Source: a virus. Taken from it: a stretch of DNA of 55,142 nucleotides. Positions 34,379 to 41,347 of the stretch are shown here, piece after piece. A program made the translations under genes and the position numbers. The number at the start of each line of letters is the position of its first letter. Position 1 is the first letter of the stretch. The notes below the pieces were generated by a model. The model searched no databases. It was not told the DNA's origin and saw only the letters and a program-made list of their open reading frames with translations. Location of the stretch: IMG/VR virus record IMGVR_UViG_3300045988_062587; one strand, written 5' to 3'.

Positions 34379-34717
34379 TCAGGTATTCTCAGTGTCATCC
34401 GTATCGGAGACATTCAACTCCAGAAGGGTCAGGCGATAAGCCTGATCCACGTTCATCTCGTCGGCATCCTCGATGGCACTTTTGGATTCCATGATCCAGC
34501 TGCCGATGTCGGTCTGCTCCAGCATGACCGTTTCCAGCTCATCGCCCATCTGATCGCGGTCGAACAGCTGGTACGGCGTCCCGGCATAAGAAATGCCCGA
34601 AGCATCAGGCTCCGGGCAGAGGATATAACAGCCGTTGTCGGCTTTTTTGATGTAGGTCACGTCCTCGGTCAAGGCAAGGACGGTGCCATCACTGGCTTTG
34701 ATGATTTTGTTGAACAA
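34379..34717 (-). CDS. Hypothetical acidic protein (112 aa)
   Basis: ORF whose start overlaps the RT 3' end. Confidence 0.55.
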   Translation of the reverse strand: MFNKIIKASDGTVLALTEDVTYIKKADNGCYILCPEPDASGISYAGTPYQLFDRDQMGDELETVMLEQTDIGSWIMESKSAIEDADEMNVDQAYRLTLLELNVSDTDDTENT

Positions 34718-35889
34718 GGCACTCTACCTCCAAAAATTGCATAGCAAAGCCGCCGCAGACGCAGCAGCCGCCCATGGTCATCAAAATTTTTATAGTAGGC
34801 TTCTTGGCAGTTCATATACTGCGCTACCTCCTGCAGGGTACGTTTCCCGGCCAGCCATTCACGGTGGAACAGCTTCAGTTTCCTCCGTGCGCGTATCACG
34901 CCGTCACGACTACCATTGACTTTGATTTTCCCGGTCTCGGTCAAGGTAAAACGAGCCTTGCACCAGCGGAAAGGCTTTGTCAGAGGGATGATCTTGCATT
35001 TCTTCTTGTTGACCGGGATGCCGCGGATTTCAAACTGGCGCACGATAGCGCGGCCCAGCTTTTTCAGATCTTCGATATCCGGGAGAATGATGCAGTAATC
35101 ATCCATGTAGTGTCCGGCGCTATGCGTGGACATCTGGCATTTGATCCAGTTGTCCACAGCACTGGGCATTGCCGCCATTTCTTGTTGGCTCGGCTCAACG
35201 CCCAGCGGCATCCCACGGCCCGGAAATTCGCCGGGAGCAGTATCAATAATGGTATCTGCTATCCGCCGAAAATCAGGGTTCAGGATATACCGCTGGTGCC
35301 GCTGATAGATGATAGAATGGGGTGCATAAGGAAAGAACTTCTTCAGGTCGAGCAGCAACACCCCGCCCGCACGGCCATACTTGCGGTAATGCCGTGCCAG
35401 CTGCTGTTTGATGCGCTTGATCTGCCAGTGCAGTCCCTTACCAATCCGGCTTGCACCGTTGTCATAGATCATGCTGGGGTCGTAAAGCGGCTCCAACACT
35501 TCCTTGCTGATGACCTTGTGGATTTGTCGGTCTGTAATATGAGGAGCGTCAATCCCACGAATCTTGCCGCGTTCGCAGACCGTGAAATGAACGTATTTCT
35601 TAGGCCGCCACCTTTTGGCCAAAATAAGCCGCCGCTGCTTCGCTGTGTGGGAAAACAGATGCCGCTCAAAGTTCTGCGTGCTCTGCTTCCAGCGTACACC
35701 GTTGCAGCATTTCCGGCCATATTTGAACATCGTGTGGTAACTGAATACTTCTCCCAACGAACCGAGGGCGGCACAACGAGCTTCCTGTCTGGCTCGGCGT
35801 GCTGCCCGGCGGCGCTGGTATCGTGCTTCATGGCGCTCCTGACTTGTCATAAAAGTATTCGCTCCTCGTACAGATGAATTGTAGGGCAT
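34669..35889 (-). CDS. DGR reverse transcriptase
   Basis: Catalytic HYMDDYCII, the DGR-typical GxxxSQ motif (GVEPSQ), and LLLDLKKFF. The more likely start is the ATG at 35850 (MTSQERHEA, GAGGAG upstream). Confidence 0.9.
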   Translation of the reverse strand: MPYNSSVRGANTFMTSQERHEARYQRRRAARRARQEARCAALGSLGEVFSYHTMFKYGRKCCNGVRWKQSTQNFERHLFSHTAKQRRLILAKRWRPKKYVHFTVCERGKIRGIDAPHITDRQIHKVISKEVLEPLYDPSMIYDNGASRIGKGLHWQIKRIKQQLARHYRKYGRAGGVLLLDLKKFFPYAPHSIIYQRHQRYILNPDFRRIADTIIDTAPGEFPGRGMPLGVEPSQQEMAAMPSAVDNWIKCQMSTHSAGHYMDDYCIILPDIEDLKKLGRAIVRQFEIRGIPVNKKKCKIIPLTKPFRWCKARFTLTETGKIKVNGSRDGVIRARRKLKLFHREWLAGKRTLQEVAQYMNCQEAYYKNFDDHGRLLRLRRLCYAIFGGRVPCSTKSSKPVMAPSLP

Positions 35890-36071
35890 CGTCTAATCTG
35901 CTTTATGCCGGCACATGAAACGCGGTAAGATGCATCCCGCGCCATGCAAGAAGCGTCCGTGTCAGCATATCGAAAAGCAGTTTTAGAGGTTTGACCCTCA
36001 GGGAAGTACCTCTCCTTTTGCTATGGTCGTCTTTCACCTATGGCTACTCCATGTGACCAAGCATTGCAAAA

Positions 36072-36202
36072 TCCGGGCACAACACCATACGCATTGTTAG
36101 CGTTGTTATAGTCCAACGACCCCGACGACGAAACCGCGCAGAAGTTGTTGTTGTTGTTGATGTTGTTGTAGTTCGGCGACCGCAGCCACCAGACCGCCGC
36201 CG
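36072..36202 (-). repeat. DGR template repeat (TR), Asn-codon (AAC/AAT) rich
   Basis: Homologous to 37111-37232. The track ORF at 36021..36227 is this repeat, not a gene. Confidence 0.85.
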
Positions 36203-36234
36203 CAGGAATTGACAGAGATACACCCACTTAAAAA

Positions 36235-36693
36235 TCAGGCTTTCCGATTGACCGTTCCGATCATGCCTTGCAGCAGGTCGTTTTCCTTGTCAATCAGCTC
36301 ACCCAACTTTTGAGCCATTTTGTCCAGTCTTTCAGTTGCTTTCTTCGCATCGACACTTTTCCCTGAGGGAGTTGTGAAACATCCCTGCGGGTTCTGGGTC
36401 ATGATGAGATAGCAGTGAGTCAACCGAACATCCAGCGCCATCAGGGATGCCCGCGCTTCCAGAAGATGTGCTTTACGAAGCTGGCGCCGCTGATCGTCGG
36501 AGGGATAGATGCTGTTTGCCTTTTCGGCGTGGTCTATCACCTCGCCTGCCAGCTTTGCAACCGGTTCTGCAATCAATCTGGAATACCTTGCGGAAATGCG
36601 GGTCAGGAAGTTTATCGTTTCAATGTAAATCGCATTGGCGACATTCACATACTCCGCCTTGCTTTCTGTGCGCTTGGATTTCAAAACTGACAT
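36235..36693 (-). CDS. avd: Accessory variability determinant (Avd-like helical bundle protein)
   Basis: 152-aa basic helical protein immediately upstream of TR, with a GAAGGAGA RBS inside the end of the RHH gene. Confidence 0.6.
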   Translation of the reverse strand: MSVLKSKRTESKAEYVNVANAIYIETINFLTRISARYSRLIAEPVAKLAGEVIDHAEKANSIYPSDDQRRQLRKAHLLEARASLMALDVRLTHCYLIMTQNPQGCFTTPSGKSVDAKKATERLDKMAQKLGELIDKENDLLQGMIGTVNRKA

Positions 36694-36699
36694 GATACT

Positions 36700-36885
36700 T
36701 TAGTCTCCTTCGGGGTCATCGAGATCGATTTCCCCTTGCTCTCGCTCAACTTCTTCCAAATGCTTGAGCAGCACATACTCTATGTAGTTCGTGATGGACC
36801 GATGCTCTTTTGTTGCTAGGACACCGATCTTATCAAAAACTTCATCGGACAGGCGCAGTGTAAAGACGCGCTTGTTAGTTGCCAT
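36700..36885 (-). CDS. Ribbon-helix-helix (CopG/Arc-like) protein, 61 aa
   Basis: MATNKRVFTLRLSDEVFDKIGVLATKEHRSITNYIEYVLLKHL has the beta-strand-helix-helix pattern. AGGAGG RBS. The stop lies 6 nt before the avd ATG. Confidence 0.65.
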   Translation of the reverse strand: MATNKRVFTLRLSDEVFDKIGVLATKEHRSITNYIEYVLLKHLEEVEREQGEIDLDDPEGD

Positions 36886-37083
36886 ACAATACCTCCTAAC
36901 AAACAGGTTTTGAAAGTATTGTATAGCGTTTTTCGTGCCGTGTATGCACTCATAAGACAGTTGAGTGATAGCACTTTCAGTATCTTTTTTCAAAAAATCG
37001 CGCGGGGCGCTGACGCGCCCTTTGAATTTTTTTAGGAAAGTTTGCTGTTTTCCGCCCACTTCCGTGGGCTTGAGTAAGTCGAG

Positions 37084-37100
37084 AATCCCTGCGGGGGATT
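37084..37100 (-). promoter_or_regulatory. Hairpin immediately 3' of VR (DGR target-recognition-type stem-loop)
   Basis: Minus strand AATCCC-ccgca-GGGATT. It overlaps the stop codon of the target gene and is absent downstream of TR. Confidence 0.45.
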
Positions 37101-38691
37101 AGACAACAAAGCCGGGCACAACACCATACGCATAGTAAGCGTAGTAACAGTCCAACGACCCCGACGACGAAACCGCGCAGAAGTAGTTGGTGGCGAAGTA
37201 GTACGGCGACCGCAGCCACCAGACCGCCGCCGTTCCGGTGGCGGAATGTTTATTGGCAACTTTGCTGTTACCCGCTTTGAAATAATCGTACTGTGCCTGA
37301 TAGTTCGGCTCCGCATCATTGCAATACTGGTGCGTTGCAAAGACCTCATACTCGGACAGCAGGAACAGATAATCCGTGGTAGAGGACACGTTGCTGGCGG
37401 TATTGCCGCCGCCCGCATTATCCGTATACTTCGTGCAGGACTTCATCGCCGCCCGCAGGTCAGAGGGAAGTGCAGCCAGCAACGTGTTGGCGGTCGGACT
37501 GGTGGGAGAACTTGCGCTACCCAGCACCTTGCTCCGCATCTGACTGCTTCCCCAGCCACCAGAGTTCGTGTTGCTGGTGTTCATCGTGAACGCACCAGAC
37601 GTAGAAGTCGTGCTGCCGTAGCTGCTATCCACCAGACCAACAAACTTGCCGCTGATCTTACCCAACAGGAAGTGGATACGGTTGCTGCCCTCCTTGCCGG
37701 AATTGTGGTTGAAACCGATGATAAAGGCATCGACTTTCAAGCTGGAGATTGTAGTTGCACCCACCTTGCCATTGATGGTTACACTCTTAGTGTCGCCCAC
37801 AGACCACCAGTTCTTCGCCTTGCCCTCATCGGACACCTTGCGGATAACTTTCCACTCGTTCTTCTCCAGAACGGCGTTGATGTAGGTCAGCGTCAAAGCA
37901 TAATTCTTGTACTCGGTGGCGGCAACCGTGGCGTTGGTCGAGTCGGTGCCCAGCGTTGCAGTGATGCTCCATGTACCCAGCTCAGGCGGATAGAAAACGA
38001 CAGTGCCGTTTCCGTCGTTGCCGCTCACAATGGCCGTGAGGGTGGTATCTCCGCAGGAGGCCGTGACCTCGCTGCCCACAGGTGCGGTCAGCGTCAGAAC
38101 GCAAAAATGTACAGTGGTCGTGTAGCTACCACCGTTCTGCGTCACCTCGATTTCTGCGGTGTCACTGATGGCATCGCCCCTGACCGCCTGAACAGTATAG
38201 GTACCCGCCCGCTTGATACGCACCGATGCCACGCCGTCGCTGTCGGCCGTCGCCTTATAGGCTTTGCCCGTACCAGTCATGGTAGCGGTGACGGTCGAGC
38301 CGGTGGCCGCCGTTACCGCCAGCGTGGCAGCGAAGTACGGCAGATTGAGCGTATACTGACCGCCCACGACATCGACAGTGACGGTGTCGTCCGTGGTCAG
38401 ACCGGCCAGTGATGCCGTGACCGTCCACTCGCCCAGCCGGGGCAGCGTGGTGGTGAAGCTGCCACCAGTCGCCGTGCCGGTGATAGTGCTCTGGCCGTCA
38501 GTGATGGTCAAGGCGCTGCCCGCAGTCGTAGTGACAGTGAGCTTCGGCAATGTATTGCCCAGCACCTTGTCCAGCGCCTCCTGAATGTTGGATGCAGAAA
38601 TGCCCAGAGTGTCCTCGTAGGCGATTTCTTTTGCAGTCCCGCCGCCGCTCTGTGCACCGCCAGAACCTGCATTAAAAGGGCCCCATGCCAT
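37099..38691 (-). CDS. Tail fibre / receptor-binding protein, DGR target (Ig-like repeats + C-type-lectin-fold C-terminus)
   Basis: Thr/Val-rich repeated beta modules. C-terminal AVWWLRSP....FCAVSSSGSLD.....YGVVPGF carries the VR. Confidence 0.8.
   Translation of the reverse strand: MAWGPFNAGSGGAQSGGGTAKEIAYEDTLGISASNIQEALDKVLGNTLPKLTVTTTAGSALTITDGQSTITGTATGGSFTTTLPRLGEWTVTASLAGLTTDDTVTVDVVGGQYTLNLPYFAATLAVTAATGSTVTATMTGTGKAYKATADSDGVASVRIKRAGTYTVQAVRGDAISDTAEIEVTQNGGSYTTTVHFCVLTLTAPVGSEVTASCGDTTLTAIVSGNDGNGTVVFYPPELGTWSITATLGTDSTNATVAATEYKNYALTLTYINAVLEKNEWKVIRKVSDEGKAKNWWSVGDTKSVTINGKVGATTISSLKVDAFIIGFNHNSGKEGSNRIHFLLGKISGKFVGLVDSSYGSTTSTSGAFTMNTSNTNSGGWGSSQMRSKVLGSASSPTSPTANTLLAALPSDLRAAMKSCTKYTDNAGGGNTASNVSSTTDYLFLLSEYEVFATHQYCNDAEPNYQAQYDYFKAGNSKVANKHSATGTAAVWWLRSPYYFATNYFCAVSSSGSLDCYYAYYAYGVVPGFVV
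37111..37232 (-). repeat. DGR variable repeat (VR)
   Basis: Last ~40 codons of the target gene. It has 12-13 substitutions relative to TR, all at TR adenines. Confidence 0.85.
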
Positions 38692-39187: not shown

Positions 39188-40213
39188 TTACTCGCCGTAA
39201 ATCTCTGCCAGCATCTCGGACACCTCGGCATCGGTAGCCGTATGGTTCGCAATGGCCTTATCGATGGTGGTATCCATGCCGTCCAGCTTGGTCTTATCCG
39301 CAGCGGACATCAGGCCAGCCTTGGCAGTGGTCGCCTCGTCATAGGTGGTATCCTGAGCCGGGATGCCAAGGCCGGTGATATCATCCTTGGTCACAGGAAT
39401 GGTATCGGTCACATGGCCCTCTTCATCCACAGTGGTCTTGTACAAACCGCTGGCAGCAGCGGTGTGGGTGGGATGGACATACTTGTTTGCGCCAGCCTCA
39501 ATGCCGTCCAGCTTATCCTTGAGAGCCGCAGTGAAGTTCTCGTCAGACAGACCCTTGCCCGCTTCTTTCTCCACATAGCCAGACAGGTCAACGAAACCGG
39601 CCAGCACATCATACTTGTAGGCATCGCCGACCTTGACCACCACGACATTGGTGCCCTTGGGATATTTGTTGCCCGCACCCTCAACGAAGTTGTTGGTGGT
39701 GGTGAAAGCATCAGTCACGTTGTAGACGTTGCCCAGAACATTCTCAGCCAGAGCGGGCAGCGCAGAAAAGACCACAGAGCCAGCGGGCTTATAGACAGCG
39801 CTGATCTTGGCGTTGATCTCGTCCTTGGTGTAAGCGTCGGTGATGCCGTATCCACCCAGAGTAGTGGCCTTGTCGGCCTTTGCAGCCAGAACAGCAGCCA
39901 GAGCGTCGTCGAGGTCAGACTGGGAAATCTTCGCCTTGTAGGCCAGTGCAGCCAGACCCTTGATGGCAACATCGGTACCAGCCACGGAAATGCTACCGTT
40001 CTTGGAGCCGGTGGCAACCAGAATGTCCACCATCTTCTCAGCGATGGCCAGGGCAACGCCGTTCACCTTAACGCCCTCCAAGACGTTGGCCTGTGCGCCG
40101 ACATCCTCCAGAGCCTTGATGCGCTTGTTCTGGGCCTCGTCAACGGCCTTCTGCTTCAGACCCAGCGCCTTCAGTGCGCCCAGCTTTGCGAGCTTCTCAA
40201 CATTGTAAGCCAT
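39188..40213 (-). CDS. Tail fibre protein
   Basis: N-terminal coiled coil and repeated GYGITDAYTK-type fibre motifs. C-terminal ATDAEVSEMLAEIYGE. Confidence 0.65.
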   Translation of the reverse strand: MAYNVEKLAKLGALKALGLKQKAVDEAQNKRIKALEDVGAQANVLEGVKVNGVALAIAEKMVDILVATGSKNGSISVAGTDVAIKGLAALAYKAKISQSDLDDALAAVLAAKADKATTLGGYGITDAYTKDEINAKISAVYKPAGSVVFSALPALAENVLGNVYNVTDAFTTTNNFVEGAGNKYPKGTNVVVVKVGDAYKYDVLAGFVDLSGYVEKEAGKGLSDENFTAALKDKLDGIEAGANKYVHPTHTAAASGLYKTTVDEEGHVTDTIPVTKDDITGLGIPAQDTTYDEATTAKAGLMSAADKTKLDGMDTTIDKAIANHTATDAEVSEMLAEIYGE

Positions 40214-40246: not shown

Positions 40247-41347
40247 TTATTTGTCGTAGATTTCGGCCAGCATTTCGGATACATCATCCGTAGCTGCCAT
40301 CTGGTCTTCGGAAACTGTGGCGTGGACAGAAATAACACCGTCTTTGGTCACTTCCACGCCGTCGCCAATTTTCACGCAGCCCAGCCGGTCACGGGTCGCA
40401 ATTACCAGTTCACCGGTGCCACCTCCTTTCCCGAACAGAGTGACGACTGCCTGAATATCAGCTTCCGGGATGCGCTGAGAGAAAAAGCGAACAATACCGT
40501 TCAAAGTCTCGCACCCGTTCAGGACACCCGCCTTGTTCGAAATAGAAAAGCAGCTGGCAGTTGCGGAACCGCTGGGCCAAAGCTCAGGGGTGCAGTCTGC
40601 CAACTCTGCATCGTAGGTATACGCATACGGCATTTCACCCTCGCTGTCCGATACGGCTTTCCAGCCGTCCACAGAAAGGGTCAGGTCGTATTTGCCATAG
40701 TAGCCGCCGGAGCTGCCGCCACCACCGCCGCCGCTTTCCTTGATAAGCTCTTTGACCCTGTCTTCCGACATGATCTGGCCGGATTCCTCCAGCTCTTTCA
40801 GAGCCTTACTGGTGGCTTCGGTGATGATTTTGGCATGGGCATCCGGGGCATCGTTGTGCTGTGAGATCTCCTTCAGCACCATTTCCCGCACCATCCGCAT
40901 AATTGCTTCAACCTGCGGGTCAACGGTGAGTGAGATATTGGCTTTGGTCGAAACGGCCAGCAACACAGCAATTTGGAATTCATGGTCAGCAGTACCGATG
41001 GCCGGGATCTCGATGCCCCGATCGTCCTGCATCAAAAAGAGCAGCGTGTCCTCCGGGTCGTCATTGAGGCGGCCAAACACACCGATCTGGTGCATGAAGT
41101 ACGGCTTATCTGCACCGCCCGTCCAAATGCTAACTTTGCGGGCTTTTTCACCCTCATATTCCACGGTGTCGATGCCCAGCAGTTTAAGCTCATAGGTATC
41201 ACCGCTGACTGCCGTTTCCTCGGACAAGTCGGTGTCAACGGTGCCCGTGCCGCTTACAGCACGGGTGATGGTGAGCGCACCGCCCGAAATGGACTCGGAC
41301 AACATCGCAGCACCGGCGCTGGTATATGCATATTTTTCCCAGCTCAT
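40247..41347 (-). CDS. Tail fibre / baseplate-proximal fibre protein
   Basis: Follows gpI with an ATGA overlap. The N-terminus resembles P2 gpH-type attachment regions. C-terminal ATDDVSEMLAEIYDK. Confidence 0.55.
   Translation of the reverse strand: MSWEKYAYTSAGAAMLSESISGGALTITRAVSGTGTVDTDLSEETAVSGDTYELKLLGIDTVEYEGEKARKVSIWTGGADKPYFMHQIGVFGRLNDDPEDTLLFLMQDDRGIEIPAIGTADHEFQIAVLLAVSTKANISLTVDPQVEAIMRMVREMVLKEISQHNDAPDAHAKIITEATSKALKELEESGQIMSEDRVKELIKESGGGGGGSSGGYYGKYDLTLSVDGWKAVSDSEGEMPYAYTYDAELADCTPELWPSGSATASCFSISNKAGVLNGCETLNGIVRFFSQRIPEADIQAVVTLFGKGGGTGELVIATRDRLGCVKIGDGVEVTKDGVISVHATVSEDQMAATDDVSEMLAEIYDK

Follow-up and report, generated by a model that had tools for sequence, protein, structure and literature searches.

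The DNA analysed here, a viral stretch of 55,142 nucleotides (nt) from the IMG/VR record IMGVR_UViG_3300045988_062587 (hereafter the window), carries a diversity-generating retroelement (DGR) on its minus strand, and this element is very probably a canonical DGR that works in the way proposed for such systems. Judging from sequence comparison, it is the DGR of a Taranisvirus-like temperate Faecalibacterium phage of the FP_Taranis group. It is already known, since near-identical DGRs of this group have been published and are contained in RefSeq. In minus-strand order, the cassette comprises a target gene with a DUF6273 domain, a short hairpin, a ribbon-helix-helix (RHH) gene, a gene for a basic protein of 152 amino acids (aa), the template repeat (TR), an RT-2 RNA and the gene of a reverse transcriptase (RT), as listed in Table 1. 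An earlier note, made from the sequence alone, had described a complete and intact DGR with the order target gene with VR, RHH gene, avd, TR and RT. Its coordinates and this order were confirmed, with all open reading frames (ORFs) open and the catalytic motifs intact, and the interpretation holds: the RT, the adenine-only substitution pattern, the position of the variable repeat (VR), an end resembling the initiation of mutagenic homing sites (IMH and IMH*) and a structured spacer RNA are all present. The parts, their order and the adenine-only pattern are observed here and across 23 related TR/VR pairs; priming by the spacer RNA, a complex of RT and accessory protein, retrohoming at the IMH and a role in receptor binding are presumed by analogy with the prototype DGR of Bordetella phage BPP-1.

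Table 1. Features of the DGR and of its target and fibre genes, in coordinates of the window
Feature	Position	Strand	Description
DGR RT	34669-35850	minus	393 aa from likely start ATG 35850; open frame to 35889 (406 aa)
RT-2 RNA (Rfam RF03077)	35841-36061	minus	175 bits vs gathering score 40; full-length model match
TR	36069-36202	minus	134 nt, non-coding; core 36073-36200 (128 nt)
Avd-like accessory protein	36235-36693	minus	152 aa, isoelectric point (pI) 9.4; gene ends 32 nt before TR
RHH (Arc/CopG-like) gene	36700-36885	minus	61 aa; inside cassette
Terminator-like hairpin GGGCGC-GTCA-GCGCCC	37004-37021		between target and accessory genes; flanked by T/A runs; consensus match only
Inverted repeat AATCCC-CCGCA-GGGATT	37084-37100	minus	6-bp stem, 5-nt loop; folded as DNA
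Putative IMH	37099-37131	minus	common end GCGTATGGTGTTGTGCCCGG, then VR-specific CTTTGTTGTCTAA vs TR ATTTTGCAATGC (IMH*)
VR	37108-37232	minus	125 nt; core 37112-37230 (119 nt); 9 nt shorter than TR
DGR target gene	37099-38691	minus	530 aa; C-terminal DUF6273 403-530; VR in residues 488-528
Tail fibre protein	40247-41347	minus	phrog_27381 'tail fiber protein' E=3e-198; N-terminal 204 aa = anchor domain

The TR and VR cores differ by 12 substitutions, and with all single-gap placements enumerated, 12/12 lie at TR adenines. This outcome is the same for nine equivalent placements of one in-frame 9-nt gap within the AAC tract, and a 13th mismatch at the 3' boundary (TR GGA vs VR GGC) again concerns a TR adenine. 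Re-alignment thus reproduced the 12 or, with the boundary position, 13 substitutions counted in the earlier note, without any real mismatch at a non-adenine, and its example (TR GAC TAT AAC AAC GCT AAC AAT against VR GAC TGT TAC TAC GCT TAC TAT) is exact. By chance (hypergeometric), all 12 substitutions would hit one of the 23-25 adenines aligned within 121 positions with a probability of 1e-10 to 4e-10. With blastn, the two repeats align over 134 columns with 13 mismatches and 9 gap positions (E=4e-38). A single T-to-C mismatch in the default gap placement of MAFFT was rejected as an alignment artefact. The adenine-free core of 31 nt has exactly two copies in the window compared to zero expected, and neither a search with this core nor blastn of the TR found a second VR or a remote target in the window. 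Since there is no further copy of the TR, the element has a single VR here.

The composition of the TR matches this pattern. Within the 130-nt stretch compared across loci (36073-36202), it contains 29 adenines, nearly all of them in codon positions 1-2 and mostly in AAC codons, so that adenine changes can recode 12 AAC/AAT codons and five single-A codons while no allowed change yields a stop codon. The size of the pair (~100-150 nt), its differences (almost) only at TR adenines, the location of the VR at the target gene's 3' end and the AAC-rich TR with adenines in codon positions 1-2 are all characteristic of DGRs. The TR adenine at 36084 (VR 37123; the A of GCG TAT GGT), located 3' relative to the last codon that varies, is the same in all VRs examined, unlike the adenines upstream of it, which all vary. 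This constancy fits either a homing boundary or strong selection for tyrosine.

In the cassette region, the window shares 95% nucleotide identity with FP_Taranis (Taranisvirus taranis) and 94% with the phages Roos and Pioen. Over the whole window, the structural half is 97.6% identical to Taranis, compared to only ~86% for the replication and lysogeny half. The TR/VR pair of Taranis was reported in 2018 by Cornuault et al. (PMC5883640), and DGRs with read-level variation of the VR were reported for Roos and Pioen in 2024 (PMC11792537). All three phages have the same gene order, with the same DUF6273 target, RHH gene, 152-aa gene, RT-2 and RT. Their VR sequences differ from that of the window, and their TR is identical to it apart from one codon. 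This codon (TR 36155-36157, codon 10 of the AAC tract) is AAC in the window and TAC in Taranis, Roos, Pioen and most contigs. The AAC variant is common to seven loci including the window, whose VR has TAC at the aligned codon. The mismatch at codon 10 could therefore predate the change in the TR rather than reflect mutagenesis.

A search with the adenine-free core brought up 49 loci in IMG/VR and a single isolate genome, that of F. prausnitzii UT1. Among 22 TR/VR pairs, 264/266 differences are at TR adenines (A to T 114, A to G 95, A to C 55), and the UT1 isolate genome shows the same adenine pattern. The TR is nearly constant across the lineage, with the exact TR of the window occurring in seven loci when the window is counted, and nearly every related contig has a different VR. 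One of the two non-adenine differences among the 266 is a T-to-A change in the 5' part of the FP_Taranis VR (GGCGGCGGACTGG vs TR GGCGGCGGTCTGG; locus L001). In two further loci, L049 (IMGVR_UViG_3300045988_048237) and L035 (IMGVR_UViG_3300014804_000064), the IMH*-flanked 'TR' carries VR-like codons in one half, on the 5' side in L049 and on the 3' side in L035. These copies are most likely the result of chimeric metagenome assembly across the 130-nt repeat. Alternatively, they could stem from VR-to-TR gene conversion, which would corrupt the template.

The RT matches Pfam RVT_1 (E=5.8e-15) and phrog_1423 (E=8e-88). In a BLASTP comparison with bRT of BPP-1 (Brt translated from the BPP-1 genome), it shows 23% identity over 297 aa (E=9e-14), and its sole PDB sequence match below E=0.3 is 8ub7_A, with the same alignment as the direct comparison. 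The HYMDDYCII and DGR-type GVEPSQ motifs that had been pointed out beforehand are both exact. In the numbering of the 406-aa frame, LGVEPSQ occupies residues 229-235, where it is aligned with IGSLTSQ of bRT, YMDD residues 261-264 and HYMDDYCII residues 260-268. The SQ motif is diagnostic for DGR RTs. The enzyme thus combines [I/L/V]GxxxSQ and YxDD motifs with a nearest similarity, by PDB sequence search, to a DGR RT.

The spacer between TR and RT is filled by the RT-2 RNA, which starts 8 nt after the TR, ends just past ATG 35850 and is the only Rfam match in the whole window. Taranis, Roos, Pioen and, although diverged, Dulem virus 34 have it at this position too, so that a structured RNA lies between TR and RT in all of them. 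Weinberg et al. described RT-1 to RT-19 as motifs adjoining RT genes, with RT-10 located between TR and brt in BPP-1 (PMC5737381). Based on the conserved position and on this precedent, RT-2 is the spacer part of the DGR RNA of this element, and by analogy with BPP-1 it would have a role in priming.

At the other end of the system, the sequence GCGTATGGTGTTGTGCCCGG is unchanged in all VRs. It starts after the last variable adenine, and beyond it TR and VR diverge. After the common GC-rich end ...GTGCCCGG, the VR continues with CTTTGTTGTCTAA and the TR with ATTTTGCAATGC, an arrangement that is kept in all relatives and apparently corresponds to IMH and IMH* as defined in PMC5758913. The inverted repeat at 37084-37100 lies 7 nt past the end of the TR/VR homology and overlaps the stop codon of the target. 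It is a weak candidate for a counterpart of the GC-rich hairpin or cruciform downstream of the IMH. Its stem position is kept in relatives with other bases (CCCC/GGGG in Taranis, CCCCC/GGGGG in Pioen). As a GC-rich inverted repeat downstream of the IMH is found in only 34% of DGRs (PMC5758913), this feature is not strictly DGR-defining. A promoter scan yielded nothing above the shuffle expectation.

The target protein matches Pfam DUF6273 (E=2.5e-14, above the gathering score) and phrog_37900 (E=6e-149), and its FP_Taranis ortholog is annotated in RefSeq as 'DUF6273 domain-containing protein ... DGR target'. DUF6273 has been reported to be C-type-lectin-like (PMC10743442; bioRxiv 10.1101/2024.10.15.618418), and the VR-encoded tip is likely to share this fold, given the domain membership and these papers. 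When the whole target was compared with the PDB by phmmer, nothing but spurious matches of its middle region to Kelch-like designed repeats came up. Ahead of the target gene stand a P2-I-like baseplate gene as well as three fibre-like ORFs, and the lysis genes come after it. It is a separate ORF in the window, Taranis and Roos, and is fused to a fibre N-terminus in Pioen. Over residues 1-204, the 745-aa Pioen target shares 100% identity with the N-terminal part of the fibre protein encoded at 40247-41347, and its residues 216-745 correspond to the window target. The 900-aa target of Dulem virus 34 also starts with a domain weakly similar to this fibre N-terminus (E=7e-4). The assignment of the target to the tail fibre, as proposed in the earlier note, is supported by the position in the baseplate and fibre module and by the fusion in Pioen, which is the strongest evidence; the target itself has neither the N-terminal anchor domain of the fibre nor a fibre annotation.

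Two proteins of the fibre module, encoded at 39188-40213 and 40247-41347 on the minus strand, end alike (...TDAEVSEMLAEIYGE and ...TDDVSEMLAEIYDK). Pioen does not contain these two upstream ORFs, and its fibre N-terminal domain is joined straight to the body of the DGR target. From the near-identical protein ends and the Pioen fusion, the fibre module appears to be shuffled as cassettes.

The 152-aa protein was modelled with AlphaFold from 41 diverse homologues, which resulted in four long helices with a predicted local distance difference test (pLDDT) score of 93 and a predicted template modelling (pTM) score of 0.86. An earlier run with 20 close homologues (74-100% identity) reached a pLDDT of 65 with meaningless Foldseek matches and was discarded. 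The best fold match in the PDB is 2gsc (Foldseek probability 1.00, target TM score 0.76-0.81), and in the viral structure library BFVD, ranks 2-5 are entries named 'Avd-like protein' (probability 1.00). The former is Xcc0516, a pentameric four-helix-bundle protein and PF05635 representative reported to be homologous to bAvd (PMC10053308). Avd proteins have a pI of 9.5 +/- 0.7 (PMC5758913), which is in line with the value for this protein. A small basic protein, modelled as a four-helix bundle, is therefore encoded immediately upstream of the TR. The gene is kept beside TR, RT-2 and RT in Dulem virus 34, and its family is large, comprising 367 representatives when clustered at 50% and 1550 clusters when clustered at 90%. 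In Taranis, Cornuault et al. did not find an Avd homologue (PMC5883640).

In the proposed mechanism, the minus-strand accessory operon (RHH, Avd-like protein, TR, RT-2 and RT) would yield an RNA of the TR and the structured RT-2 spacer. The RT, presumably together with the basic four-helix-bundle protein, would reverse-transcribe the TR and misincorporate opposite template adenines, and the resulting cDNA would take the place of the VR at the DUF6273 gene's 3' end. The direction of this transfer may be set by the difference between IMH and IMH*, and perhaps also by the short hairpin after the stop codon. As an outcome, up to 17 codons could be recoded, with 15 possible residues at each of the 12 AAC/AAT codons and no stop codon. 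In theory, this would allow ~1e17 variants of a C-type-lectin-like tip that would form the distal end of the tail-fibre module and most likely its surface for host binding.

Several results weigh against this mechanism, and they concern the accessory protein, the hairpin, the current activity and the nature of the target. For the accessory protein, searches against Pfam, NCBIfam, PADLOC and, with phmmer, the PDB gave no Avd match, and none of the 41 diverse homologues matched a Pfam family at E<=1, including PF22296 and PF05635, while bAvd itself, used as a control, matches PF22296 at 7e-36. The family profile likewise had no match in the PDB, and aligning it with bAvd in hhalign gave a probability of 0.4%. 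The Foldseek E-values of the model are modest as well (0.03 for the PDB, 0.002 for the 'Avd-like' entries of BFVD). The gene that the earlier note had called avd is thus Avd-like by modelled fold, position, size and charge, but it is no demonstrable member of the Avd sequence families, with neither bAvd nor the Pfam Avd families matched in sequence. The hairpin at 37084-37100 has folding z-scores of only -0.5 to -1.4, which is no better than shuffled sequences. In addition, the present VR is no straight copy of the present TR, as the TR is three codons longer, and with a single sequence as the basis, ongoing activity in this genome is at most plausible. Finally, the 530-aa target of the window has no recognisable fibre anchor domain and no direct match to a fibre family, and its VR domain matches the 'Hoc-like head decoration' DGR targets of phrog_10993 (E=3.7e-11).

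The length gap between the repeats would fit a DGR that is dormant or a fossil, with VR differences that are inherited and no diversification at present. This explanation further agrees with the AAC at codon 10 of the window TR, where most relatives as well as the VR have TAC, which fits a change in the TR after the last homing, and with the lack of read variation in the DGRs of several other Faecalibacterium phages, Mushu, Lelie and Lagaffe_CP as well as CP11 (PMC11792537). Nevertheless, it is considered rather improbable. The open reading frames and catalytic motifs mentioned above are intact, there are 0 non-adenine differences over ~119 positions compared to 1-5% flank divergence among relatives, nearly every related contig has its own VR on the near-constant TR, and it is the close relatives Roos and Pioen that show read variation in their VRs (PMC11792537). 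Comparing the identity of flank and VR for dating the last homing was uninformative, as the upstream flank of 800 nt reaches into a part of the target gene that is divergent and recombines. From the absence of non-adenine differences and the read variation in Roos and Pioen, the recent activity put forward in the earlier note is plausible, but a single sequence is unable to show it. This label and that of avd were both over-confident.

The target might instead be an adhesin on the virion surface and no receptor-binding fibre, for example a decoration of the Hoc-like or 'tentaclin'-like kind with mucus or other gut ligands as its binding partners. Besides the missing anchor domain and the Hoc-like match, this is suggested by the occurrence of DUF6273 in tentaclins and other non-fibre DGR targets (PMC10743442) and by the fact that Cornuault et al. 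assigned no function to the Taranis target (PMC5883640). However, the gene stands in the baseplate and fibre block directly after three fibre-like ORFs, the Pioen body is covalently joined to a fibre N-terminal domain, the Dulem virus 34 target begins with a similar domain, and the Hoc-like match is limited to the shared DUF6273/VR domain. A decoration protein is therefore deemed to have a low probability, similar to that of a dormant element. By far the least credible explanation is an ordinary duplication near an unrelated RT of a group II intron, a retron or a defence system, with a coincidental adenine bias. It draws on a weak match to an NCBIfam group II intron RT/maturase (48 bits against a cut-off of 300) and on generic PADLOC matches to RT and DRT families, but bRT itself scores stronger generic PADLOC RT matches than the RT of the window and is the only significant RT match in the PDB. 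Moreover, no intron RNA domains and no retron msr/msd were found, RT-2 being the only Rfam match in the window, and the substitution pattern has p ~1e-10 in the window alone and is repeated across the lineage (264/266). The group II intron, retron and defence-RT readings were rejected on the weakness of these generic matches and on RT-2 and bRT as the sole Rfam and PDB RT matches. A canonical DGR hence remains the preferred reading.

Beyond substitutions, the VRs of this lineage differ from their TRs in length. In the window, the VR tract at 37183-37203 compares with the TR tract at 36153-36182. The VR/TR length differs in 11/22 pairs (-6 nt in four, -9 nt in three, -12 nt in three and +3 nt in one), and UT1 adds a difference of -3 nt (TR tract 27 nt, VR tract 24 nt). 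In total, 12/23 pairs differ (the window; loci L003, L005, L009, L010, L022, L027, L036, L041, L047, L052 and L055), with the VR shorter in 11 and longer in one, and all differences are multiples of three within the AAC tract. Most pairs come from metagenome assemblies, and L005 and L047 share one VR and are not independent. Among the cultured strains and phages (Taranis, Roos, Pioen and the UT1 isolate genome), two of four differ in length, namely Pioen with +3 nt and UT1 with -3 nt, while the repeats of Taranis and Roos are equal, in comparison to -9 nt in the window. TR tracts range from 27 to 36 nt (27, 30, 33 and 36 nt), with none shorter than 27 nt among ~50 TRs, and VR tracts from 18 to 33 nt. 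Since the TR tracts are narrow and the VR tracts wide in range, the spread and the bias towards shorter tracts are a property of the VR.

In-frame VR length differences are consistent with slippage of the RT on AAC repeats, which is a known phenomenon, and it is their frequency that stands out here. Wu et al. found in-frame indels in only 14/372 DGRs and proposed RT slippage on AAC repeats (PMC5758913), and a 2026 study of BPP-1 invokes the same model (PMC12875486). The indels described by Wu et al. are likewise multiples of three inside the AAC tract with adenine-only substitutions on both sides, but are nearly all located in or near the cyanobacterial non-phage Lineage 4, in contrast to the single phage-borne Firmicutes lineage considered here. 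The 9-nt difference of the window could also be due to ordinary replication slippage that expanded the AAC tract of the TR after the last homing, unrelated to the retroelement mechanism. The tract length of the TR does vary, which shows that this DNA repeat slips. This would, however, account poorly for the wide VR range with 11 shorter and one longer among 23 pairs, for the lack of TR tracts below 27 nt, and for diversified VRs being imperfect repeats that should slip less as DNA, and indels beside AAC in TRs have been attributed to RT slippage (PMC5758913; PMC12875486). Relative to RT slippage, slippage of the DNA is thus judged unlikely, although not as improbable as a dormant element. Taken together, it is tentatively suggested, with somewhat less confidence than an even chance would imply, that this lineage also varies the length of its binding loop by RT slippage (6-11 codons from a template of 9-12 codons), far above the general frequency in DGRs, and combines this with a sequence-cryptic Avd-like protein and a lineage-specific RHH regulator.

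The RHH gene within the cassette had already been recognised before this analysis, and its profile support is weak but consistent, with matches to the Arc-like repressors of phrog_582 (E=1.9e-6) and to Pfam RHH_7 (E=2.9e-4, below the cut-off). It is present in Taranis, where RefSeq lists an 'Arc-like repressor', and in Roos and Pioen, whereas Dulem virus 34, with an otherwise syntenic DGR, lacks it. The gene is thus an addition specific to this lineage and no core part of a DGR. A perfect 9-bp inverted repeat (ATACAATAC ... GTATTGTAT, 36884-36924 on the minus strand, arms 23 nt apart) brackets both the ribosome-binding site and the start codon of this gene. As a candidate operator or RNA hairpin over the ribosome-binding site, it would suggest that the RHH protein may regulate its own expression and perhaps control the downstream avd-TR-RT unit. 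At the other end of the cassette, an ORF of 112 aa (34379-34717, minus strand) shares 49 nt with the 3' end of the RT gene and matches phrog_29248, a family of unknown function. It is without annotation in the Taranis RefSeq record, and Dulem virus 34 has an ORF with 46% identity over 80 aa that overlaps its RT gene in the same way. The 112-aa ORF may be one more conserved gene beside the cassette or merely the first gene of the lysis-side block.

Compared to the prototype mtd-avd-TR-brt system of BPP-1, the element has the same order of target, accessory gene, TR, structured RNA and RT on one strand beside lysis genes. Both systems share a homologous RT and adenine-specific differences, and both have the VR at the 3' end of a gene for a tail protein, which is a probable one in the window. 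In addition, IMH is distinct from IMH* in both, and the VR is followed by an inverted repeat, in the window a weak candidate. In contrast to BPP-1, the accessory protein of the window has no detectable sequence similarity to bAvd, the spacer RNA is RT-2 instead of the RF03022 Phage_DGR RNA in the equivalent gap, and an extra RHH gene stands between target and accessory gene. The target also has a DUF6273 domain instead of the Mtd architecture, and the RT is extended at its N-terminus by an arginine-rich stretch of ~30 aa, which precedes the part aligned with bRT.

For gut Faecalibacterium phages, this element is an ordinary find, and the window is another genome of the Taranis group. As a discovery it adds little, as RefSeq and the literature already contain the DGR of the group together with its TR/VR pair and DUF6273 target. 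What is added is the fold-level identification of the accessory protein, RT-2 as the spacer RNA between TR and RT, the fusion evidence for a place of the target in the fibre, and the in-frame length differences between VR and TR in about half of the known lineage members. The analysis thereby provides a full parts list for this lineage, including pieces that published descriptions left open or omitted, namely the Avd-like fold and the RT-2 spacer. The points of interest to specialists are the in-frame length polymorphism of the VR and the cryptic Avd-like protein. RT slippage on AAC repeats has so far been inferred only from surveys and from the error profiles of BPP-1. If the length differences arise in retrohoming, the inducible prophages Roos and Pioen would be convenient for measuring it, and if the joint reading of variable loop length, cryptic accessory protein and RHH regulator is true, the lineage would offer a natural and tractable case of programmed indel mutagenesis.

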